The notes: generated by a model not told the origin, from the sequence alone. Positions 1 to 15,536 are shown, counted from the first letter of the stretch. The stretch is 64,000 bases of DNA from Aneurinibacillus sp. (GCA_020725425.1 DYFA01000045.1:4051-68050); one strand, 5' to 3'. Program-made: numbers and translations.

Positions 1-1230
1 CTGGCCGCCTTCCACCAGGCCGGGGAAGGGCTCCCGCCGGTGGAGCGAGGTGAGCGGGTCCGGTACGATCGGTGGCCGACCGTACTGCAGGAGCGCCACG
101 GTGACCTTCAGGTCATGCGCCGGGAGGCGGTCCGCTCCCACGGGGAGTTCGCCCGGCTGTTCGCCGAGTACGTCGACGACTTTCTGGAACAGTCCGACCG
201 AGCGCTGACGGGGCTTCTCGCCGCACCGCTGGAGGAGGTCAAGCGGGAATGCGCCGCCCGCCGCTGTCTGGCCCATCGCCGGTTCACTCCGGGCCGGCTG
301 CGCCGCGTCGGCCAGGAACTTCTGGTGGACGGCTGGGCCCACCTGGCTTTGGACCTGCCGGTGGTGGACGCCGCCCGGTTCGTGATCGCGGGCGCGGGGA
401 GCGACCCGGACCAGGCCTTCGCCTTTCTGGAAGCCTATCACGACGCCCGGCCCATCTCGGAACCGGAGTGGGAGATCCTCCTTGCCTGGCTCCGCTTTCC
501 GCACGACTTCTGGCGCCTTGGACACCTCCACTTCGCCCGCCGCGAGACGCATCGCAGCCGCTTGGCCAGAGTGATCCGCCATGAAGTGGAGCGGGAGGTC
601 TTCGTGGAGACGCTGGCCCTGCAGTGGGCCTCGCAGAAACTCGTCCAGTTGCTTCCGCTGACGAGCGCTGAGGCTTCATCTCCGGAGGAAGCCCCGCTCC
701 CGGCGGAGCAGTTGACCAGCCAAGAAGAGAGGGAGGCGACTCTGGTGACAGAAGCTGAAGAGTTGATCGGCCTGGGGATTCTGGAGGGCGAGGAGCCGGA
801 GGAGGCGGCTGGCGCGCCGTCGGCAGATTGGCCGGCGGAGGAGCCACCGTACTTCGAGGTGCCGTTCGAGGTGATGCCTGTTTCCCTGGAGGTTGACCCG
901 GTGCCCTTCCTGGACGTTCCCCCGGTTGATGAGCCGCCCGGGGAGCCGGAACCGGCGGAGGTGACGGAGGCCGTCGAGGTCGCGGAAGCCGTCGAGGTCG
1001 CGGAAGCGCTTGAGGACGTCGGTATCGAGCTCGGGCCGGTGGAAACGCTGCTCGCCGAGGCGCCGCCGAGTGAAGCCCTCTCCCTGGAGGCCCCCCTGGC
1101 AGATGAGCCGCCCGGGGAGTCGGAACCGGCGGAGGTGATGGAGGTCGCCGAGGTGGCAGAGGCGGTCGAGGTCGCGGGCCGCGTACTCGTCTGGAAACCC
1201 TTCCCTCCGCCCCTGCCGCCCCGCGGTTAG
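1..1230 (+). CDS. CotS-family (aminoglycoside-phosphotransferase fold) spore-coat kinase-like protein, 5' partial, with degenerate catalytic motifs and an acidic Pro/Glu/Ala/Val repeat tail
   Basis: The frame is open from nt 1 (LAAFHQAGEG...), so the GTG at 40 is internal. The C-lobe resembles the three neighbouring CotS paralogs. The HxDxxxxN and DFD positions read AHRRFTPGR and VDGWAH. The last ~190 aa are PE/AEVxE low complexity. Confidence 0.6.
   Translation: MAAFHQAGEGLPPVERGERVRYDRWPTVLQERHGDLQVMRREAVRSHGEFARLFAEYVDDFLEQSDRALTGLLAAPLEEVKRECAARRCLAHRRFTPGRLRRVGQELLVDGWAHLALDLPVVDAARFVIAGAGSDPDQAFAFLEAYHDARPISEPEWEILLAWLRFPHDFWRLGHLHFARRETHRSRLARVIRHEVEREVFVETLALQWASQKLVQLLPLTSAEASSPEEAPLPAEQLTSQEEREATLVTEAEELIGLGILEGEEPEEAAGAPSADWPAEEPPYFEVPFEVMPVSLEVDPVPFLDVPPVDEPPGEPEPAEVTEAVEVAEAVEVAEALEDVGIELGPVETLLAEAPPSEALSLEAPLADEPPGESEPAEVMEVAEVAEAVEVAGRVLVWKPFPPPLPPRG
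928..1180 (+). repeat. In-frame coding repeats: a duplication spaced 174 nt apart (928-970 vs 1102-1144) and an exact 18-nt tandem GCCGTCGAGGTCGCGGAA x2 (970-1005)
   Basis: Direct comparison shows 2 mismatches in 43 nt between the two DEPPGE(P/S)EPAEV segments. The tandem unit encodes AVEVAE twice. Confidence 0.8.
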
Positions 1231-1243
1231 GCGCTGCTTCCGT

Positions 1244-2272
1244 TCACTGACCGGCCGGCAGGGGGCGGGGCAGCCCAACCCCCAGGCGGTCCGCCAGCAT
1301 GGGCAGGAAGCGCTGGACCGGCCCCCAGCTGGCCTCCACCTCCGCCAGCCGGTGCAGCAGGTGGCGGCGGGACTTCCCCTCCCGCGCCCGGTAATAGCGG
1401 TGCGCCACCCGCCAGTACTTCTCCGGGAAGGCCAGGAGGGCCAGGAGCAGCCCCCGCTGGTGTGCGTTCAACGGGCGGACGGCCTCGTAGGCGCCGATCA
1501 TCTGCTCCGCCAGCTCCAGCCTCCACTGGACGTTCTGGTCCACCCGTCGGACGAGCCGCGCCAGGTCCAGCACCGGCAGGTCGACCAAGAGCGTATCGAA
1601 GTCGATCAGGAACGGCTCCCCCCTCCACCAGACGAAGTTCCGCTCAGCCGGATCCCCGTGGCAGAACCCTCCCCGGGCCCGGAAGGCCTCGACCTCTTCG
1701 AAGTAGCCTGACTGCGCCAGAAGGTCGAGCGCCCACTCGGCCAGACCCGTCCACCGCTCCGCCGACGCCAGGAAAGCCTCGGTGAACCGGTCGGGCTTGA
1801 ACTCCAGAGTGCGGTCGGCCTGGAGCGCTCTAAGCTCCCTGACCCGTTCGGAGAGCCTTTCCGGCCATTGTCTCAGGTGTTGCCGGAGACAGCCGTAGTC
1901 GAAGAAGCCCTCCGCCGCCGCGTGGAAGGAGGCCAGGCACCGGGCGGCCGAGGCCGCCATCTCCGGGCGGCTGAGGTCCGGTCGCTTGCCCGGCAGCCAC
2001 TCCGTGAGGTAGTAGCAGGCTTCCCCGTGCTGGCAGAAGGGCCTGCCCTGGCGGGTGAGGAGGAACGGAGTGAGCTGGTGAAAACCGCGGCGGGTCAGGT
2101 GGTCCAGCGCCCGGGCGATCACTTCGACCCGCTCCGGGGGGCCGCTGGCCCGTTTCAGGCAGAACTGGCCCCGGGCTGTGACAACCCGGTAGGCGTCCCG
2201 AACGGCTTCAATCCGCTCCACCCGCAGATCCCAGGCCAGGAAGACTGCAGGGTCAGGCCAGTGGATGGCCAT
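1244..2272 (-). CDS. CotS-family spore coat protein (kinase-like)
   Basis: 342 aa. Motifs are CHGDPAERNF ... LIDFDTLLVDLPVLDLARL (HxDxxxxN plus DFD). GAGGGAGGAGGAG lies just upstream of ATG 2272. Confidence 0.85.
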   Translation of the reverse strand: MAIHWPDPAVFLAWDLRVERIEAVRDAYRVVTARGQFCLKRASGPPERVEVIARALDHLTRRGFHQLTPFLLTRQGRPFCQHGEACYYLTEWLPGKRPDLSRPEMAASAARCLASFHAAAEGFFDYGCLRQHLRQWPERLSERVRELRALQADRTLEFKPDRFTEAFLASAERWTGLAEWALDLLAQSGYFEEVEAFRARGGFCHGDPAERNFVWWRGEPFLIDFDTLLVDLPVLDLARLVRRVDQNVQWRLELAEQMIGAYEAVRPLNAHQRGLLLALLAFPEKYWRVAHRYYRAREGKSRRHLLHRLAEVEASWGPVQRFLPMLADRLGVGLPRPLPAGQ

Positions 2273-2291
2273 CTTCTCCTCCTCCCTCTCG

Positions 2292-3308
2292 CTACCGTTC
2301 CCCGAGTTCCGCCCGGAGTCCGGCCAGGTACTCCTCGCGGAGCTCCGCCTCCTCCGCCCGCTTGGCCAGAGCGTCGAGCCACCGCTCCTCCGGCCAGAGC
2401 AGCCGTTCGGTGTAGCGTTGCCACCCGAGGAGCCAGTACCGATGCGGCCAGATCAAGAGGGCGAGGAGCAGACGGCGTTCCCCCCGCTGAAGCGGGCGAA
2501 CCCTCTCATAGAACCGGAGCGCCGACTGCGCCGGCGCCGCCTCCCAGTCCTCCGCCTGGGCCTGGCGCTGGAGAAAGTTGGCCAGGTCGTGGGCGGGAAA
2601 GTCGTACAGGCAGTAGTCGAAGTCGATGAGCCGCACTCCGCCGCCACTCAAAAGGAAGTTCCGCTCGGAGAGGTCGTGGTGGCAGATGACCGGCCGGCGC
2701 CTTCCCGCGGCGGACAGAAAGGGATACGCCGAGCTTTCCAGGAGCTTCAGAGCCTTTCTGGCCTGTTCGAAGTGGTACGGCCAAAGGGCGAGGTAGGCTC
2801 GGTCGACTCGTCCGCCGGCGGCGCGGGCGGCCTCCCGGAAGACCTGCAGTTGGACGGCCCGGCGCCCGAACCTCTCCGGCCAGCGCCCCCACTCTACCCG
2901 GAGGTGACCGGCCGGCGGGGGTCGGAACCCCTCTCCCCGCAGGTGAAGGTAGGCCACCGCCTCGACCGCCAACACCAAGTCCGCCGGGTCGGGGAAGTGA
3001 GCCTCCCGCCCGTCCACCCAGTCGGTCAGGAGAAAGGCGTAACCCTGCCGCTCGACCCAGGGGCGGCCGCGACAGTCCAGCTCGAGCTGGGGCGCCGGTT
3101 CACCCCGGCGGCGCAGGTAATCCAGGGCTGCAGCCACGAAGGTCAGCTCGGGGGCGGTGAGGGTGGTGCACTTGAGGAAACGCGGGCCGTCCACCGTGTC
3201 CACCCGCCAGGCCCGCCGCACCGGCGTGAAAGAGACCGGCTGCAGGCCGAACTCCCCCACGACCGCGGACAGCTCCCGAGTGGTCCACTCGCTGACCCGC
3301 CGCACCAC
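2292..3308 (-). CDS. CotS-family spore coat protein (kinase-like)
   Basis: 338 aa. Motifs are CHHDLSERNFLL ... LIDFDYCLYDFPAHDLANFL. GGAGGG lies 9 nt upstream of GTG 3308. Confidence 0.85.
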   Translation of the reverse strand: MVRRVSEWTTRELSAVVGEFGLQPVSFTPVRRAWRVDTVDGPRFLKCTTLTAPELTFVAAALDYLRRRGEPAPQLELDCRGRPWVERQGYAFLLTDWVDGREAHFPDPADLVLAVEAVAYLHLRGEGFRPPPAGHLRVEWGRWPERFGRRAVQLQVFREAARAAGGRVDRAYLALWPYHFEQARKALKLLESSAYPFLSAAGRRRPVICHHDLSERNFLLSGGGVRLIDFDYCLYDFPAHDLANFLQRQAQAEDWEAAPAQSALRFYERVRPLQRGERRLLLALLIWPHRYWLLGWQRYTERLLWPEERWLDALAKRAEEAELREEYLAGLRAELGER

Positions 3309-3405
3309 TACGCCTCATCCCTCCGGACCATTGTATGACGGGCGCAAGGCACGTGCTCGAACCATATAATGCGCTAGGCATCGGCCCGAAGGGGGTGAGC
3401 CGGCA

Positions 3406-3579
3406 GTGGATCCCAACATGCTCCGCCAGGCGGTGATCGTGATCGTCGGCTTGGTGACTGCAGCCCTGCTGATCAAGGCGCTGTTCTTCCCGAGCCCACT
3501 GGACATCCTGGCACTCTTTGCCTTGATCCTGGCGCTTTTCGCCCTCTTCGACTTCGACATCTTCGGACGACGAAAGTAG
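3406..3579 (+). CDS. Small hydrophobic membrane protein (57 aa; 53 aa if ATG 3418 is used), below the ORF-track cutoff
   Basis: Translation is VDPNMLRQAVIVIVGLVTAALLIKALFFPSPLDILALFALILALFALFDFDIFGRRK. GGGGGTGA (3391-3398) lies 7 nt before GTG 3406. The stop is 15 nt before the GT4 gene. A TATAAT sits at 3365-3370. Confidence 0.5.
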   Translation: MDPNMLRQAVIVIVGLVTAALLIKALFFPSPLDILALFALILALFALFDFDIFGRRK

Positions 3580-3594
3580 TGTGGAGGCTGGAGC

Positions 3595-4758
3595 ATGAAG
3601 ATCGGTATCGACGCCCGGGCGGCGGCGCGCTACCGCGGCACGGGCCTGGGTACCTACACCCATCGCCTGATTTGGGCTCTGAGCGAGCTGGACCGGTACA
3701 ACGAGTACACGGCCTTTGCCCCGGCGGCCGCGCCCGCCGGACCGGCGGGGAGCGGGGGCGAAACCCCGCCGGCCTGGGCCCCCGACCTGCCGCTGACCGC
3801 CAACTTTACCGTCTTCCCCTTTCCGGCCCACCCGGATCGGGGGGAGGAGGATTCGACCATCAGCCGGGAGCTGGCTTCCGGTGCCTTTACCCTGCACCAC
3901 GTGCCCCATAACGGACTGGGTTTCCCTCCGGATCCGCCCTGTCCGGTGGTGACCACGGTGCACGACCTCATCCCCTACGTTCTGCCCCAGACCTGTACCC
4001 GGCGGTACCTCGACCGCTTCCTGGCCCGGATGCCCGAGATCTGCGCCCGCTCGGCCCTGATCCTCACCGTGTCCCGCCACACCCTCCAGGACCTCTACCG
4101 CATTCTCGGGGTCCCCGAGACGAAGATCGTGGTCACGTACGAAGCGCCGGAGCCGTGTTACCGCCCTCTGCCCTTCGCCGAGGCGAACGCCCGCGCTGCT
4201 GAAAAGTACGGGCTCAGGGGTCCGTTCTTTCTCTACGTGGGCGGGTTCAGCCCGCGCAAGAACCTGCCGGCTCTGCTCTCGGCCTACGCCGCCGTCCGGA
4301 ACGACCTCCCCGACCGGCCGCCCCTCGTTCTGGCCGGCAGCCTCGACCCGGCCGGGCAGCGCCTGGTGGACCGGGCGAAGGACCTGGGTCTCACCGGCGA
4401 GGTGCTTTTCCCCGGCTTCGTACCCCTCGCTGATCTGCCCTACCTCTACCGGGCAGCGCGCCTCTTCGTCTACCCCTCGCTCTACGAGGGATTCGGGTTG
4501 CCACCCCTGGAGGCCATGGCCTGCGGCACCCCGGTGATCTCAAGCCGCGAGTCCTCTCTGCCGGAGGTGGTTGGCGACGCGGGGTTCCTGATCGACCCGT
4601 ACGACCCGGACTCGCTGGCGACAGCCCTGCTCAAGCTGGGAAGCAACCCGGAGGCCCGGGAGGCGCTCCGCCACCGGGGGCTGCGCCGGGCCAAGGCCTT
4701 CTCCTGGCGCCGGACCGCCGCCGAGACGCTCCTCGCGTACGAGGCGGTGGCCGGATGA
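3595..4758 (+). CDS. Glycosyltransferase family 4 (group 1), cotSA-like by context
   Basis: 387 aa. It carries the GT4 C-terminal signature YPSLYEGFGLPPLEAMACGTPVISS. Its stop overlaps the next ATG (ATGA at 4755). Confidence 0.9.
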   Translation: MKIGIDARAAARYRGTGLGTYTHRLIWALSELDRYNEYTAFAPAAAPAGPAGSGGETPPAWAPDLPLTANFTVFPFPAHPDRGEEDSTISRELASGAFTLHHVPHNGLGFPPDPPCPVVTTVHDLIPYVLPQTCTRRYLDRFLARMPEICARSALILTVSRHTLQDLYRILGVPETKIVVTYEAPEPCYRPLPFAEANARAAEKYGLRGPFFLYVGGFSPRKNLPALLSAYAAVRNDLPDRPPLVLAGSLDPAGQRLVDRAKDLGLTGEVLFPGFVPLADLPYLYRAARLFVYPSLYEGFGLPPLEAMACGTPVISSRESSLPEVVGDAGFLIDPYDPDSLATALLKLGSNPEAREALRHRGLRRAKAFSWRRTAAETLLAYEAVAG

Positions 4759-5771
4759 GCGGTCCGCGGCGGCCCAAGGATCCCGGAGCGCCCTGGGGTC
4801 TGCCGGCTGGGGAGCTGACCCCGGTCCGCGGCGCCTACCTCCTGCAGTGCGGGAATGAGCGCTACTGCCTGAAGCCCGTCACGCTGAACCGCCGCGAGGT
4901 GCAGTTCGTGGCGGCCGTCCTGGAGCACCTCGGGCGGGCCGGCCTGGCCGGCGTTCCCCGTCTTCTCCCCACGCTGGGTGGTGAGCCGGTCGGGCGGATG
5001 GGACGCCAGCGGTTCCAGTTGCTCCAGTGGCAGGACGGGCGGGAAGCGGACTACCTTCGTCCCGGCGACGCCGAGGCCGCGGCGGTGGCGCTGGCCCGCC
5101 TCCACCTGGCGGGCCGGGGCTTTGTCCCGCCGTTCCCGCGCTTCCGGGTGCTCTTCGGCGCCTGGCCTCGGCGGTGGCGGCGCAAGCGGGCGGAGCTGGC
5201 GCGCTTCGCTGAGTTGGCCAAGAGTTCCGCCCGGCCCACCGCCTTCGACCGGGAGTACGCCCGTTTCGCGCCCCACTGGCTCGCCGAGGCTGACGAGGCC
5301 CTGGCGGAGCTGGACGCCTCCCCGTACCGGGCCCTCTCGGCCGCCGCCCGCCGCTTGGGGAGTCTCTGCCACCACGACCTGGCTCACCACAACGTTCTGC
5401 TCACCGCGGACGGGCCGGCGCTGGTCGACTTCGACTACGCCCTGGCCGACCTCGGGGTGCACGACCTGGCCAACCTGCTCCGGCGCCTGCTCCGCCTGGG
5501 TGGGTGGGATCCTGCCCCCGGCCGCTCGGTCCTTTTGGCCTACCGGGAGGCGGCCGGGTCCGGCCCGGCGGAGATGTCGCTCCTCCTGCCGCTCCTCCGC
5601 TTCCCCGAGGAGGCGTGGCAGACCGGCCGCCAGTACTACGTCGAGAACCTGCCCTGGCCGGAAGAACGGTACCTCGAGCAGCTGGCCCGCAAACACGACA
5701 CTGCCCCGGCCCGCCGGGCCTGCCTCGCCGAGCTGTCTGTGACGGCCAGCCGCAAGAAAAGGGGGGCGTGA
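4755..5771 (+). CDS. CotS-family spore coat protein (kinase-like)
   Basis: 338 aa. Motifs are CHHDLAHHNVLL ... LVDFDYALADLGVHDLANLL. Confidence 0.85.
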   Translation: MSGPRRPKDPGAPWGLPAGELTPVRGAYLLQCGNERYCLKPVTLNRREVQFVAAVLEHLGRAGLAGVPRLLPTLGGEPVGRMGRQRFQLLQWQDGREADYLRPGDAEAAAVALARLHLAGRGFVPPFPRFRVLFGAWPRRWRRKRAELARFAELAKSSARPTAFDREYARFAPHWLAEADEALAELDASPYRALSAAARRLGSLCHHDLAHHNVLLTADGPALVDFDYALADLGVHDLANLLRRLLRLGGWDPAPGRSVLLAYREAAGSGPAEMSLLLPLLRFPEEAWQTGRQYYVENLPWPEERYLEQLARKHDTAPARRACLAELSVTASRKKRGA

Positions 5772-5774
5772 CGC

Positions 5775-6737
5775 TTGTCGGACCGGTTCTATCTGGGCGA
5801 TCCGCACGTCCACTCCACCCTCTCCGACGGGCGCCTCTCCCCCGCCGAACTGGTGCTGGTCGCAGCCGCCCGGGGGCTCGACTTTCTGGCCCTGACCGAC
5901 CACTCCCGGCCGGTGGGGAGCCGGGAGGAGGCGCCGCTTCATCCGGACTCGGAAGCGGGCGGGGAGCGCTCGGCGATGTGCCTTCTCCCCGGCCAAGAGG
6001 TCTCGATCGGCGGGCGGATCCACTTCCTGCTGCTCGGCTGCGTCCAGCCGCTCTCCCGGGCCCGGTTCCGCCTGGAGCGCCTGAAGGAGCTGGCGGGGGC
6101 GGTCCACACCGCCGGAGGGGCGGTGATCCTGGCCCACCCCTGGACAGCGCTTGCCGGGTCCCCTGACCGGGTGCACCTTTTGGACCGGGGATTCGCCGAG
6201 GGATGGATCGACGGCCTGGAGGTCTTCTCCGCGGCGCTCCGCCCGTCCCAATTCGATCTCTGGCAGCGGACGTTCGAGCACTACCTGCGGGAATGGGCGC
6301 CCCACCGGCCGGCCACGCTCGCTTCCTCCGACTGGCACCACCGGCGCCACGGCCGTGCCCTGGGCCTCTGTTGCACCTACGTTCAGGCGCCCGCCCCGAC
6401 TCCCGCCGCCATCCTGGGGGGTATCCGGGCGCGCCGGACAGTGGCGGTCCTCCAGCGGGCCACCGCGCTGGAAGACGGCCTGTACCCCCACCTGTTGCCG
6501 TTCCCAGACCGCTATCGGGCGGGGATCGCCTGGTGGGGCGGCAACCTGTGCGGACCGGAAGAGCTGGTCGAGGCGCTGCTGACCCTGCGGGGTGAGGCGG
6601 GAGACCGTCTCCGGTCCGGCGCGCCGGCCGGGAGGCGCAACGACCACCGGGGTGAACTGTGGCGGGCGGCGCTCAGCGCCTACGCCGCCGGCAACCACCG
6701 GCGAGCGCTGGCTCTGCTCAACCAGACCGAGGGGTGA
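5775..6737 (+). CDS. PHP-domain metal-dependent phosphoesterase
   Basis: 320 aa. Motifs are GDPHVHSTLSDG ... LALTDH. The TTG start is preceded by AAAGGGGGG at 8 nt. Confidence 0.8.
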   Translation: MSDRFYLGDPHVHSTLSDGRLSPAELVLVAAARGLDFLALTDHSRPVGSREEAPLHPDSEAGGERSAMCLLPGQEVSIGGRIHFLLLGCVQPLSRARFRLERLKELAGAVHTAGGAVILAHPWTALAGSPDRVHLLDRGFAEGWIDGLEVFSAALRPSQFDLWQRTFEHYLREWAPHRPATLASSDWHHRRHGRALGLCCTYVQAPAPTPAAILGGIRARRTVAVLQRATALEDGLYPHLLPFPDRYRAGIAWWGGNLCGPEELVEALLTLRGEAGDRLRSGAPAGRRNDHRGELWRAALSAYAAGNHRRALALLNQTEG

Positions 6738-6742
6738 GAGAC

Positions 6743-8257
6743 ATGGCGGTCCGGCTGGGAACCGAAGGCTGGCGGGGGGTCATCGGCGACGACTTCACCC
6801 TGCCGAATGCCCGGGCCTTCGCCCGGGGAGTGGCCCGGTGGCTGTGGGAACGGGACCAGGCTGGCCGCGGCGTGGTCGTGGGGTACGATACGCGTTTCCT
6901 CTCCGACCGCGTGGCGGTGGAGGTCGCCGGGATCCTGACCCGAGCCGGGATTCCCGTGCGGCTTTGCTCCCATCCCGTGCCGACCCCGGTCCTGTCTTTC
7001 GCCGTGCGGGACCTGGGTGCCGCCGCCGGGCTTATGGTCACGGCCAGCCACAACCCCCCCGAGTACAACGGGATCAAGGTGAAAGGGCCCCACGGCGGCC
7101 CGCTCTTCGGCCCCGAACTGGCGACTCTCGAAGCGGCCCTGGCCCGGCGCCGGCCGCTCCCCGCTTCCCCCCGCCTCCGTCCTGAGCCGTATGATCCGGA
7201 CCCGGCGTATCTCACCCACCTGGGCGGGCTCGTCCCGCTGCCGCTGCTCGCCCGGGCCGGCTTCGGAATCGTGATCGACCCCATGCACGGGGCCGCCCGG
7301 AACTACCTGCGGCGCCTGCTCCGCCCCTACGGCCTGCGGGTCCGCCAGATCCGCTCCTCTGCCGACCCCCGCTTCGGGGGGGTCAGCCCGGAGCCGGTCG
7401 CGGCCAACCTCGCCCCCCTGAAGCGGGCAGTCCGGTCCTGCGGGGCGGCGGTGGGGCTCGCCACCGACGGCGACGGCGACCGGCTCGGGGTGATCGACGC
7501 CGGCGGGCGTTTCGTCAGCCCGCAGCTGGTCTACGCCCTCCTCCTCGACTATCTGGCCCGGGAGCGCAACCTGCGCGGCGGAGTGGTGAAAACGGTCTCC
7601 ACCACCGGCATGATCGACCGGCTGGCGGACCGCTACGGCCTCACCCTGTACCAGACGCCGGTGGGCTTCAAGCACATCTCCCGCCTCTTCATGGACGGGA
7701 AGGCGGTCATCGGGGGAGAGGAGAGCGGGGGCGTCGGCCTCAGCCCCCATCTGCCCGAACGGGACGGCCTCCTCGCCGGCCTGCTGCTGCTCGAAGCGCT
7801 GGTTGTCCGGGGCCAACCCCTCTCCGCCCTCCTGGAGGAGTTGGAGCAGGTCACCGGGCCGCACCACTACTGCCGCCGGGACGTCCGTCTTCCCGCCGGC
7901 CAGGCTCGCCTCGCCTCCCGCGCCCTGGCCCGCCTGGCAGCGACGCCGGAGGCGCTCCCCCCGTCGCTCGCCGGGCGGCCGGTGCGCGGCGTCGAGACGC
8001 TCGACGGGCTGAAGCTGCACTTCGCGAATGGAGGCTGGGTGCTCTTCCGTTCCTCCGGCACCGAACCAGTGATCCGCCTGTACGCCGAGGCGCCCTCGGC
8101 CGGGGAGGTGAACCGCCTTCTGGAGGCGGGGGAGGAGCTGCTCTTGGGACGACCCGGCGCACGCCGGGCCGGAGGCACATATCATGGAACGCCCGAAAGG
8201 AGAGGAGCGCCATGTCCCTCGTCGTCTGGATCGTCCTCCTGGTCGTCCTCGTGCTGA
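6743..8257 (+). CDS. Phosphoglucomutase/phosphomannomutase (alpha-D-phosphohexomutase)
   Basis: Active-site loop TASHNPPEYNGIK and metal loop ATDGDGDR are present. I set the start at ATG 6743 (MAVRLGTEGWRG), preceded by GAGGGGTGAG. The track start at 6659 overlaps the PHP gene. Confidence 0.9.
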   Translation: MAVRLGTEGWRGVIGDDFTLPNARAFARGVARWLWERDQAGRGVVVGYDTRFLSDRVAVEVAGILTRAGIPVRLCSHPVPTPVLSFAVRDLGAAAGLMVTASHNPPEYNGIKVKGPHGGPLFGPELATLEAALARRRPLPASPRLRPEPYDPDPAYLTHLGGLVPLPLLARAGFGIVIDPMHGAARNYLRRLLRPYGLRVRQIRSSADPRFGGVSPEPVAANLAPLKRAVRSCGAAVGLATDGDGDRLGVIDAGGRFVSPQLVYALLLDYLARERNLRGGVVKTVSTTGMIDRLADRYGLTLYQTPVGFKHISRLFMDGKAVIGGEESGGVGLSPHLPERDGLLAGLLLLEALVVRGQPLSALLEELEQVTGPHHYCRRDVRLPAGQARLASRALARLAATPEALPPSLAGRPVRGVETLDGLKLHFANGGWVLFRSSGTEPVIRLYAEAPSAGEVNRLLEAGEELLLGRPGARRAGGTYHGTPERRGAPCPSSSGSSSWSSSC

Positions 8258-13235: not shown

Positions 13236-14228
13236 GTGCGGAAACCGACGCGACCTGTGCTCTGGCTCGCCCTGGCGCTGGTGCTGGGATTGCCTCTCTG
13301 TGCCCTGGCTCTCACCCACGTCGTGGCCCCGGGTGATACCCTGTGGAAGATCGGACAGAAGTATAACGTCCCCCTGGAGGAGATCCGAACCGCCAACAAC
13401 CTGCAGAGTGATCTGATCTACCCGGGTCAGACCCTGGACATCCCGGAGCGCCCGGTGGACTACGCCCCGCTGCGCCAGCAGATGCTCGACTACCTGGCCA
13501 CCCAGCCGGCGGAGTACAAGGTCTACTTCAAGGACCTCATGTCCGGCAAGTCCTTCGGCATCGGCGAGAACGACTGGATGGTGGCGGCGAGCATCACCAA
13601 GGTGCCGACGGTGCTCTACCTCAACACCCTGGCCGCCCAGGGCAAGATCGACTGGCAGGAGAAGGTCACCTTCCGGGAGGAGGACCGCCAGGGGGGCGCC
13701 GGCATCCTGCAGAACTTCGTCAAGCCGGGGGACAAGTTCTCGCTGCGGGTCCTGGCCAACCTGTCCATCACCATCAGCGACAACATCGCCCACCGGATGC
13801 TCCTGCGCCGGCTCGGCAAGGACAATGTGGCCGCCTTCATGCGGAGCCTCGGCGGGCAGACCGTCTACCCCAACGGCCAGAACATCACCACCGCCCGGGA
13901 CATGGCGGCCTATATGGAGGGCGTCTTGGCCTTTTACCAGCAACACAAGGACCTGGGCCGGCGGCTCCTGGATGACATGGCGAACCCCATCTATCACGTC
14001 GGGCTTCCCGGCAAGCTTCCGGACAACGTGACGGTCGCTCACAAGGAAGGGGACGTCACCGGGGTGTCCAACGATTTCGGCGTAGTCTACGGGTCCCGGC
14101 CCTTCCTGATCGTGGTGCTTTCCAAGAACCAGGCCGATCCGGAGGCGGGTTTCGAGAAGATCGCCCACCTCACCAAGCTGGCCTATGACTATCAGGAGGC
14201 CCTGGCCAAGGCCGGTTACTGGTCCTAG
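13236..14228 (+). CDS. Secreted LysM-domain protein fused to a class A beta-lactamase-like serine hydrolase
   Basis: A signal peptide is followed by a LysM domain (HVVAPGDTLWKIGQKYNV...IYPGQTLDIP). SxxK (SITK), SDN (ISDNIA) and KxG (HKEG) motifs follow. Confidence 0.8.
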   Translation: MRKPTRPVLWLALALVLGLPLCALALTHVVAPGDTLWKIGQKYNVPLEEIRTANNLQSDLIYPGQTLDIPERPVDYAPLRQQMLDYLATQPAEYKVYFKDLMSGKSFGIGENDWMVAASITKVPTVLYLNTLAAQGKIDWQEKVTFREEDRQGGAGILQNFVKPGDKFSLRVLANLSITISDNIAHRMLLRRLGKDNVAAFMRSLGGQTVYPNGQNITTARDMAAYMEGVLAFYQQHKDLGRRLLDDMANPIYHVGLPGKLPDNVTVAHKEGDVTGVSNDFGVVYGSRPFLIVVLSKNQADPEAGFEKIAHLTKLAYDYQEALAKAGYWS

Positions 14229-14464
14229 CCCCGGACTCCGATCAACTGACCCAACCGCTCCTGGTTGAACCCGACAATCACCTCGCCGTCGACTGTGATG
14301 ACGGGCACGGCCAGTTGGCCGGAGATCCGGTAGAGCTCCTCGGCGTTGGCCCGGTCCTGCGAGACGTCGACTTCGCGGAAGGGGACGCCTTGCTCAGCCA
14401 AGTAACTCTTGGCCACCCGACACCACGGTCAGGTGGGGGTGGTGTAGATGGTTACCTCAGTCAT
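14225..14464 (-). CDS. Glutaredoxin-like protein (YruB/NrdH type), predicted selenoprotein with UGA-Sec at codon 12 (U-P-W-C redox motif)
   Basis: GGAGG-N6-ATG(14464) is followed by MTEVTIYTTPT-TGA(14431..14429)-PWCRVAKSYLAEQGVPF... The TGA sits where homologs have the first Cys of CPxC. The track ORF (63 aa from GTG 14416) lacks the motif. A hairpin follows the TGA. Confidence 0.75.
14395..14415 (-). promoter_or_regulatory. Candidate bacterial SECIS hairpin
   Basis: On the minus-strand RNA the element is UGA-N15-GCCAAG-AGUUA-CUUGGC (stems 14413-14408 and 14402-14397), extendable by two G.U pairs. The apical loop contains G and U and lies ~21 nt from the UGA. Confidence 0.6.
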
Positions 14465-15536
14465 CGCCTGCCTCCTCTCCCCGGTAGCCTTTCCTGTCGG
14501 GGCGGCGGGAATTCCGGAGGTGGAGGAGGAGCATGACCCCTCCGATAGCGAGGCCCAGGTAATACGCCACCAGCCGCCAGACCAGGACGAACAGTCCCAG
14601 GAACTTCAGCGGCACCAGCCGGGCGAAGAGCAGGGCGGAGCTGGTCTCCGCCGCCCCGCTGGAACCCGGCGTCGGAGCGTACGCCGCCACCAGGTAGAAG
14701 ACAGCCGCCACAGCGAGCACCTCCGCCCAGGGCGGATCCATCCCCAGTCCCCGGAGCACCATTACCGGCACCAGGAAGGTCACCGCCCAGACGAGCAGAG
14801 TGAGGAAGGCCGCCACCACCACGGCCGACCGCTTCTCCCGGTACAGGAGCGCCACGGACTCCCGGAAGTCGGCCGCTCCATGGCGGAGGCGCTCGCCGAG
14901 CCGCAACCGGAGGCGTTCCGACAGGAGGCGCGACGCCAGGCGGCTTTGAAGTAACCGCTGCGAGACCGCTTCAACGAGGAGGGGCTTGGCCGCAAGAAAT
15001 GCCAGGGCAGTAAGGGCGGCCACGTAGACTATGAGCCCGGCGCTCAGGAAGAGATTGACCCCGGTCGGCAAGACCCAGGTGCGGCGGGCCAGAAAGAGGA
15101 GGAGGGGAAGAACGATCGCCAGGAGCAGGCGAACCGCGGCCGAGAGCAGCGACTTGACGGCGATCACCGCGGTGGATTCTCCCAGCCGGATGCCGCTCTG
15201 GGCCAGAAGATAGATGGCCAGGGGCTCCCCGCCGGAATCGAAGGGAGTTACGCCGGAGACGAAGGTGGCCATCAGCGTGATGCGCAGGGCCTGGCCGAGA
15301 CCCAGGCGCGCCCCGAGCGGGCGGGCCATCACCTGCAGCCGGAAGGCGTCGAGGAACCACCCGGCGATCACCAGAACCGCAGCGGCACCGATGCACGCCG
15401 GCTTGACCTCGACCAGGGTACGGAGGGAGGAGCCGCCCCGGGCCAAGCCCAGGACAAGGAGGCCGCCCGCCACCCCGAAGAAGAGCGCTCCGGCTACGCC
15501 CCGGACCAGTCGGGGGAGCTGTGGTTGTCCGGGCAT
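14457..15536 (-). CDS. Polytopic membrane protein, flippase-like domain (UPF0104 / lysyl-PG synthase TM-region family)
   Basis: 359 aa from ATG 15536 (MPGQPQLPRLV), preceded by GGGAGGGGGTGA, with ~8 hydrophobic segments. The rest of the 750-aa track ORF is a shadow of iorA. Its last 8 nt overlap the Grx start (ATGACTGA). Confidence 0.65.
   Translation of the reverse strand: MPGQPQLPRLVRGVAGALFFGVAGGLLVLGLARGGSSLRTLVEVKPACIGAAAVLVIAGWFLDAFRLQVMARPLGARLGLGQALRITLMATFVSGVTPFDSGGEPLAIYLLAQSGIRLGESTAVIAVKSLLSAAVRLLLAIVLPLLLFLARRTWVLPTGVNLFLSAGLIVYVAALTALAFLAAKPLLVEAVSQRLLQSRLASRLLSERLRLRLGERLRHGAADFRESVALLYREKRSAVVVAAFLTLLVWAVTFLVPVMVLRGLGMDPPWAEVLAVAAVFYLVAAYAPTPGSSGAAETSSALLFARLVPLKFLGLFVLVWRLVAYYLGLAIGGVMLLLHLRNSRRPDRKGYRGEEAGDD

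Follow-up and report, generated by a model that had tools for sequence, protein, structure and literature searches.

The locus and its reading frame

The 64,000-nt stretch of DNA analyzed here (the window), listed as Aneurinibacillus sp. (GCA_020725425.1, DYFA01000045.1:4051-68050), carries at 14225-14464 on its minus strand a small glutaredoxin-like gene whose coding sequence is interrupted by an in-frame TGA. Read through this TGA, the gene would encode a predicted 79-aa glutaredoxin-like protein of the YruB type that contains selenocysteine (Sec), with the start codon ATG at 14464-14462, the predicted Sec-UGA (codon 12) at 14429-14431 and the stop codon TAG at 14227-14225. On the minus strand, GGAGG (14475-14471) is followed by six nucleotides and then the ATG, and the whole Shine-Dalgarno (SD) sequence, GAGAGGAGG (14471-14479), is identical in all orthologs by direct reading. 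The codons from start to interruption are ATG ACT GAG GTA ACC ATC TAC ACC ACC CCC ACC TGA; the frame then continues as CCG TGG TGT CGG GTG (14416) GCC AAG AGT TAC TTG GCT GAG and onward to the TAG, giving the translation MTEVTIYTTPT-(TGA)-PWCRVAKSYLAEQGVPFREV...GVRG and 79 codons in all. An earlier reading of this DNA (the original prediction) had proposed exactly this frame, and every coordinate and sequence statement in it proved correct on re-reading.

The open reading frame (ORF) listing for the locus holds solely a 63-aa ORF that begins at the GTG (14225-14416), as the original prediction had also said. This GTG is codon 17 (Val; 14416-14418, minus strand) and the start of the public 63-aa call. 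Direct reading of the sequence found no SD site 5' of it comparable to that of the ATG.

Conservation among orthologs

Ten distinct orthologs, the window gene and those at L003, L004, L083, L085, L087, L088, L089, L090 and L091, were compared codon by codon at the DNA level. The TGA is kept in all ten. The nine others have one layout, with GAGAGGAGG, 6-7 nt, ATG (GTG in L004), ten codons and TGA, followed by CCN TGG TGY CGG NNN GCC AAG AGT TAC TTG. On the 5' side of the TGA, the residues Y7, T8, T9, P10 and T11 are invariant while all five codons show synonymous variation; the segment is therefore translated in this frame and under purifying selection. The original prediction had accepted that it would lose its footing if relatives failed to conserve the upstream codons and a hairpin lying 3' of the TGA, but the nine other orthologs retain the SD sequence, the start, the ten codons, the TGA and the hairpin. 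As a separate observation, the Val codon GTA at codon 4 (14453-14455, minus strand) is invariant in 10/10 orthologs even though it accounts for 4% of Val codons in the genome and its neighboring codons vary.

The nearest relatives in the protein collections (P0002, P0003, P0023, P0032, P0034, P0045 and P0046; 69-86% identity) have all been called as fragments of 58-64 aa with differing starts. Codon 17 is GTG in four of the ten orthologs and GCG, TTG, GTA, ACG or AGG in the others, and this variability is the reason that gene callers chose different starts and obtained products of 58-64 aa. The full-length matches in the same collections (76-92 aa) are at most 62% identical and all have CPWC or CPYC; neither U nor X occurs in any of the 75 protein-collection matches.

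The orthologous loci have in common iorA/iorB, a LysM/beta-lactamase-like gene and a PaaK-like ligase gene. Two of them bear unexpected names: L003 (JBLNCL010000017.1) is labeled 'Betaproteobacteria bacterium' and L004 (JBLNBQ010000107.1) 'Chitinophagales bacterium', yet both have the syntenic iorA-grx locus, with IorA 78-83% and the Sec-type glutaredoxin (Sec-Grx) 72-84% identical to the window lineage. The taxonomic labels or the contig binning of these two look wrong.

The window comes from a metagenome-assembled genome (MAG), and a sequencing or assembly error in a TGC or TGT codon, or decay into a pseudogene, might be suspected as the origin of the TGA. However, assemblies made independently from other samples and other sources (NCBI MAGs, Logan runs, ENA and JGI) show the same TGA, and the rest of the gene is intact and constrained, with neither frame disruptions nor relaxed constraint, so that an explanation by error or decay has almost nothing left to recommend it.

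Protein family of the read-through product

For family scoring, Sec (U) was replaced by C in the 79-aa product. The product scores 72.8 bits against PF00462 (Glutaredoxin), its residues 4-63 falling on profile positions 1-60 of 60. The YruB-type assignment of the original prediction is upheld by a borderline pass, 89.3 bits with TIGR02196 (GlrX_YruB) at a curated cut-off of 88.55. The models of NrdH-redoxin (TIGR02194, 50.7 vs 85.75; PRK10329, 23.5 vs 131) and glutaredoxin 3 (55-56 bits vs cut-offs of 90 and 129) give scores well below their cut-offs. NF041212 (Uxx_star) scores 73.8 bits against a cut-off of 66 and is matched at profile positions 1-66 of 70; membership in this family, the name of which we take to denote a C-terminal U/C-x-x-stop motif, was rejected since the C-terminus of the window protein reads ...LIGVRG and then TAG, without U or C near the end, and leaves profile positions 67-70 unmatched.

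The best relative of solved structure is the glutaredoxin PDB 7c10 (E = 7e-16), in which t-c-p-h-c stands opposite t-c-p-w-c of the query. PDB 4tr0 and 4tr1 (named Glutaredoxin 3), presumably both Clostridium oremlandii proteins, match at E = 2e-10 and 6e-9. In the family set assembled from genome and metagenome scans (at least 133 distinct members, with at least 15 of the TGA type and at least 118 of the Cys type), the T-U-P-W-C of the window stands opposite T-C-P-[WY]-C in 118 distinct Cys-type homologs among the matches listed. Together with PDB 7c10, these homologs place the UGA at the first, nucleophilic Cys of the CxxC motif, where the original prediction had put it. Two JGI orthologs (P0023 and P0034) lie outside the metagenome matches listed, and the clade census is a lower bound.

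The simplest competing explanation is that the TGA is a genuine stop and that the real product is the 63-aa protein begun at the GTG, possibly by re-initiation after an 11-codon leader, that is, a fragment of the glutaredoxin fold without a redox motif. The 63-aa form is the output of both the ORF listing and the public gene callers. Against this, the supposed leader is homologous to strand beta-1 and the active site of glutaredoxins and evolves, in the frame of the gene itself, under constraint on its amino acids, while codon 17 is a possible start in just five of the ten orthologs (GTG in four, TTG in one), with no SD sequence 5' of it. The 63-aa form spans just profile positions 14-60 of PF00462, without positions 1-13, and falls below every NCBIfam cut-off (59.4 bits with TIGR02196). 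To our knowledge, a glutaredoxin fold missing beta-1 and the CxxC motif has no known function. A genuine stop at this TGA is on these grounds highly improbable, and the GTG, judged by the comparison with orthologs, is not a genuine start. Both the family profiles and the ortholog conservation instead favor the original prediction of a 79-aa selenoprotein with a U-P-W-C center that has been split by ORF calling.

The candidate SECIS hairpin

A hairpin resembling a selenocysteine insertion sequence (SECIS) element, UGGCCAAG-AGUUA-CUUGGCUG, lies at 14395-14415 on the minus strand. Its stem pairs UGGCCAAG (14415-14408) with CUUGGCUG (14402-14395) around the loop AGUUA (14407-14403), in which G at position 2 is followed by U. 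The core GCCAAG-AGUUA-CUUGGC (14413-14397) is present as the original prediction had described it, and two G.U wobble pairs lengthen the stem to 8 bp. The hairpin was compared with the published criteria for bacterial SECIS (bSECIS) elements in a simplified implementation. As quoted in a 2026 review (PMC13188914), these are a loop that has 3-9 nt, a G among the first two positions of this loop, a stem between 4 and 16 bp long, and a distance of 16-37 nt from the UGA with a minimum free energy (MFE) of -7.5 kcal/mol or lower. With a 5-nt loop, a UGA-to-loop spacing of 21 nt and an energy of -8.5 kcal/mol, the hairpin lies within all four, so that the bacterial SECIS geometry claimed for it stands as geometry.

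Constraint on the hairpin extends to its synonymous sites. Codons 18-22 (GCC AAG AGT TAC TTG) are invariant in nine of the ten orthologs, the sole change being TAC to TAT, which turns a G-C pair into G.U; outside them, the gene varies freely in its codons for Ala, Ser and Leu. Two of the conserved codons are rare, AGT making up 2% of Ser codons and TTG 8% of Leu codons in the confirmed genes of the window, and the probability of the hairpin codon string given the peptide is 6.5e-4. Across the ten orthologs 96.3% of cells are paired in the stem, as compared with 15-55% once the partner strand is shifted by 1-3 columns. Another helix (CACCUGAC/GUCGGGUG), the MFE one, of which the UGA itself forms part, was dismissed, as its A-U pair becomes A-C in the 7/10 orthologs that have TGC rather than TGT.

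Several observations weigh against a selenoprotein. At -8.5 kcal/mol the hairpin is thermodynamically modest; in the window, which is 67% GC, the same bSECIS criteria admit 190 of the 1489 TGA triplets (12.8%), and 9% of the triplets fold as well as the candidate or better. Covariation within the clade is not significant: there is one double change (G-C to A-U, in L088), and it is matched by 145 of 500 shuffles, which is why the hairpin evidence within the clade is one of conservation and not of covariation. Three TGA-type genes (L083, L088 and L089) fail a strict filter that demands a mismatch-free hairpin within the criteria, although they have the same hairpin with one mismatch or G.U pair. 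A search for Sec machinery over contig positions 8,649-91,321 of assembly GCA_030019095.1 (about 83 kb; the window is JASEFQ010000006.1 18,565-82,564, reversed) found no SelA, SelB or SelD by Pfam family or motif and no tRNA, a result that is uninformative either way for the whole genome. No other selenoprotein gene was recognized in the window, where a GC3-based scan for further TGA-interrupted genes proved far too noisy at 67% GC and was abandoned.

In other scans and tests, tRNA scans of the window and 15 loci gave no tRNA-Sec, the local fold z-score at the hairpin (-0.9) is not significant, and a scan of the window against Rfam at gathering thresholds returned no match, although which SECIS families Rfam holds was not checked. 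Taken alone, then, the hairpin is weak evidence and not remarkable against chance, and the part of the original prediction that took its geometry as a sign of Sec insertion does not stand unaided. Because neither the hairpin criteria nor the fold z-score goes beyond chance, the case for Sec rests on homology and comparison. What is beyond chance is the combination of a TGA sited in the CxxC motif, the conservation of TGA, upstream codons and hairpin among orthologs, and the absence of the hairpin from Cys-type homologs.

Sec-type and Cys-type members of the family

What decides the matter is comparison, for across the family the hairpin goes with the TGA. Among the matches listed, a strict hairpin occurs in 12 of the 15 TGA-type genes but in only one of the 118 Cys-type genes (Fisher p = 1.5e-13). 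A matched control is offered by genes with the same local peptide: AKEYLS is encoded in the Cys-type L008 by GCC AAG GAG UAU CUA UCC, which forms no hairpin (-3.9 kcal/mol), and in the Sec-type L150, L158, L167 and L170 by GCG AAA GAG UAU CUU UCG, which forms one of 8 bp (-10.2 kcal/mol). These last four are metagenome contigs that form a second, Dehalococcoidia-like clade of the Sec type (TGA positions L150:1534, L158:1528, L167:1158 and L170:917), with the motif YSTPT-U-P[YWS]C[HK]RAKEYLSRKG and the hairpin GCGAAAGA-GUA-UCUUUCGC. In a third, Chloroflexia clade, L059 has the stem GCGAAGA/UCUUUCGC, as compared with GCGAAAGA/UCUUUCGC in the Dehalococcoidia-like clade and GCCAAG/CUUGGC in the window clade, and in all three the stem starts 15 nt after the UGA. 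Both L059 (91.6 bits) and L158 (96.5 bits) score higher with TIGR02196 than the window protein.

Two neighboring observations concern single loci. L160 (Ga0209427_10088627, 539-778) is of the Cys type (TGC) and, in the place that corresponds to the window hairpin, has a SECIS-like hairpin of 9 bp, GGCCAAGA-GCU-UCUUGGCC; no claim is made that it is a fossil SECIS, as its nearest relatives lack the hairpin and one in 118 is compatible with chance, which is the simplest reading. At P0075 (JGI 3300056388), a truncated Grx call of 53 aa, with MerT, MerB and an HMA-domain gene beside it, may represent a further Sec-type Grx interrupted by TGA, in this case within a mercury-resistance cluster.

Translation through the UGA need not mean Sec. 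A near-cognate tRNA might insert Cys or Trp, or the Sec pathway might insert Cys at low selenium, if the lineage has given up Sec or seldom uses it; the Sec pathway is known to place Cys at Sec codons. No hairpin is required for near-cognate suppression, yet here it is kept at synonymous sites and tracks TGA, not TGC or TGT. A single change from TGA to TGC or TGT would moreover give Cys, yet TGA persists in at least 15 distinct sequences from three clades, and read-through without Sec is accordingly regarded as improbable. UGA has not been reassigned genome-wide, because a neighboring gene uses TGA as an ordinary stop. That the TGA persists across ten diverged orthologs and two other clades, along with its upstream codons and a hairpin that is costly in rare codons, is the reason for concluding that the UGA is decoded, and this argument for functional decoding is indirect but strong.

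In sequence identity the Sec-type clades resemble Cys-type members more than they do one another: L158 shares 71-75% with L008 and L032, which are Dehalococcoidia-like and of the Cys type, but only 53% with the window clade, and this implies more than one switch between Sec and Cys. A broader proposal, put forward tentatively and thought rather less probable than its opposite, is that the YruB family has switched between its Sec and Cys forms several times, in phyla that are unrelated (uncultured Bacillota, Chloroflexia and Dehalococcoidia-like), each time with the SECIS built from the same helix-1 codons for A-K-x-[YF]-L, the near-palindromic coding potential of which (GCC AAG ... CTT GGC; GCG AAA GA ... 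TC TTT CGC) perhaps predisposes them to it. If this were true, the family would be a compact natural model of bacterial SECIS elements arising de novo in coding sequence, and the model would include the fusion at L059. The latter (L059:3001-3516, TGA at 3028, in the Chloroflexia MAG contig CAZQFV010000017.1) encodes 172 aa, with a Sec-type YruB-like domain, YTTPT-U-PHC, and a C-terminal PDZ-like domain. With a score of 35.5 vs 300 it is far below the model of the known Trx7/PDZ selenoprotein, and this Grx(UxxC)-PDZ architecture seems not to have been described before among selenoproteins.

Proposed mechanism

The locus very probably encodes a 79-residue YruB-type, glutaredoxin-like thiol-disulfide oxidoreductase with Sec, inserted at the codon-12 UGA, as the first residue of its active site. 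In the mechanism that we infer, which covers Sec insertion, SelB binding, the reductant and the physiological substrate, translation would start at the ATG at 14464 behind the strong SD sequence. The hairpin at 14415-14395, which falls within the coding sequence at codons 17-24 (helix-1 residues V-A-K-S-Y-L-A-E), would act as a bacterial SECIS. If decoding follows the known Sec pathway of bacteria, SelB.GTP.Sec-tRNASec would bind to the apical loop, which contains G and U and lies 21 nt beyond the UGA, and this complex would deliver Sec once the UGA is in the ribosomal A site. In the resulting U-P-W-C center, the selenolate would attack the disulfides of substrates and Cys15 would resolve the selenenylsulfide.

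The oxidized protein would probably be re-reduced by a flavoprotein of the thioredoxin-reductase type, because a domain of this kind continues the chain in Methanomicrobiales homologs and the gene adjoining L160 encodes such a protein. In the former, which are the closest homologs in archaea and account for many of the loci among L006-L081 (e.g., L006, L011 and L044), Cys-type CPYC Grx-like domains run into a flavoprotein domain (...DV[LI]I[IV]GAGPAG), and the proteins appear to be fusions of Grx with a thioredoxin-reductase-like protein. In the latter, the next gene (L160, 805-1713) encodes a 302-aa TrxR-like protein with a CAVC motif, and a rubrerythrin-like gene also follows.

Genomic neighborhood and organism

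Upstream of the grx gene and co-directional with it lies a gene for a 359-aa membrane protein of the LPG_synthase_TM family (14457-15536, minus strand; identified by gene call and Pfam), the TGA stop of which overlaps the grx start (ATGACTGA). This LPG-synthase-like neighbor is present in some orthologous loci only and is thus not a conserved partner, and no conserved partner gene adjoins the grx gene among the orthologous loci compared. Two motifs further upstream, GAATTC (14514-14509) and a GGCTAC-like box (14489-14484), which together delimit 14484-14514 on the minus strand, are kept in all nine upstream regions compared, both those formed by the 3' end of an LPG-synthase-like gene and those that are intergenic. 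This conserved region contains no match to the sigma-70 consensus, and its motifs may serve grx as an operator or as a promoter read by an alternative sigma factor.

The contig has sporulation genes (YutH/CotS-like and SpoIIP). The closest relatives of its IorA are matches of 78-83% from the clade, one labeled 'Firmicutes bacterium', and the next named ones, at about 62%, are from Pelotomaculum, Desulfotomaculum and Peptococcaceae. From the sporulation genes and the IorA relatives, the organism is therefore assigned to an uncultured, spore-forming lineage of Bacillota. Elsewhere in the window, at about 22,100-43,100 and 1-7,800, four paralogous genes of the AstE/AspA type (succinylglutamate desuccinylase/aspartoacylase) lie among two sets of ABC transporter genes, and three genes for CotS/YutH-like spore-coat kinases are accompanied by glycosyltransferase genes. 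Just beyond the window are genes for SpoIIP and a secretin (contig flanks L172 and L174), the presence of which suggests that the lineage is possibly a diderm spore-former. A literature search on the assembly accessions gave no match.

Implications

The predicted Sec-glutaredoxin of the window is a mis-annotated gene that belongs to an already known kind of selenoprotein, and the current understanding of selenoprotein biology is unchanged by it. For annotation, the consequence is that ten retrieved database entries (of 58-64 aa, plus one of 53 aa), including the entry of this MAG itself, lack the active site and would become selenoproteins of 79-81 aa. For physiology, the gene implies use of selenium by an uncultured, spore-forming, high-GC Bacillota lineage known from several metagenome samples, including a biogas fermenter, and selenium use bears on the supply of trace elements in biogas-type systems. 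For evolution, the matched pairs of Sec and Cys genes, with the same local peptide with and without the hairpin, are a clean illustration of SECIS constraint on synonymous sites. Some mild value would be added by the Grx(UxxC)-PDZ fusion of L059 and by the implied recurrence of Sec/Cys switches, with the SECIS placed in the same helix-1 codons each time.

Comparison with known systems

A published list of bacterial selenoproteins with experimental verification includes glutaredoxin (Grx, PF00462, UxxC), represented by WP_010943784.1 (PMC13188914). The primary reference for a Sec-Grx is that on Grx1 of Clostridium sp. OhILAs (C. oremlandii) by Kim et al. (2011, Mol Microbiol 79:1194; PMC3062254). 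The window protein is like the C. oremlandii Sec-Grx in having a small, single-domain glutaredoxin fold, with Sec predicted to replace the N-terminal nucleophilic Cys of the CxxC motif, a SECIS hairpin in the coding sequence just 3' of the UGA, and an anaerobic, Bacillota-type organism as its source. Unlike the classical Grx3 branch, it belongs with U-P-W-C to the YruB/NrdH-like branch (TIGR02196), where dependence on glutathione cannot be assumed, and no MsrA partner is encoded nearby.

With the Cys-type members of TIGR02196 (CP[WY]C), the window protein shares its size, the motif context YTTPTCPWC...AK.YL...VPV...GF and a full-length score above the cut-off; however, that family is overwhelmingly of the Cys type (118 vs 15 Sec-type among the matches listed), whereas the window clade has predicted Sec and a candidate SECIS. 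NF041212 (Uxx-star) likewise combines a score above its cut-off with a glutaredoxin-like fold and members that are selenoproteins, but the predicted Sec of the window protein is at the N-terminal redox motif, and its C-terminus is ...GVRG followed by TAG. NrdH-redoxin is also small, glutaredoxin-like and of the CxxC type, and as it is reduced by thioredoxin reductase it is the likely analog where the reductant is concerned; unlike it, the window protein scores below the cut-offs of that family, and no nrdEF genes are found near the grx gene in the gene calls examined. In every feature of the Sec-containing glutaredoxin (UxxC) family that was compared, namely the fold, the UGA at the position of Cys, the conservation and the SECIS criteria, the predicted product of the window gene agrees with that family.

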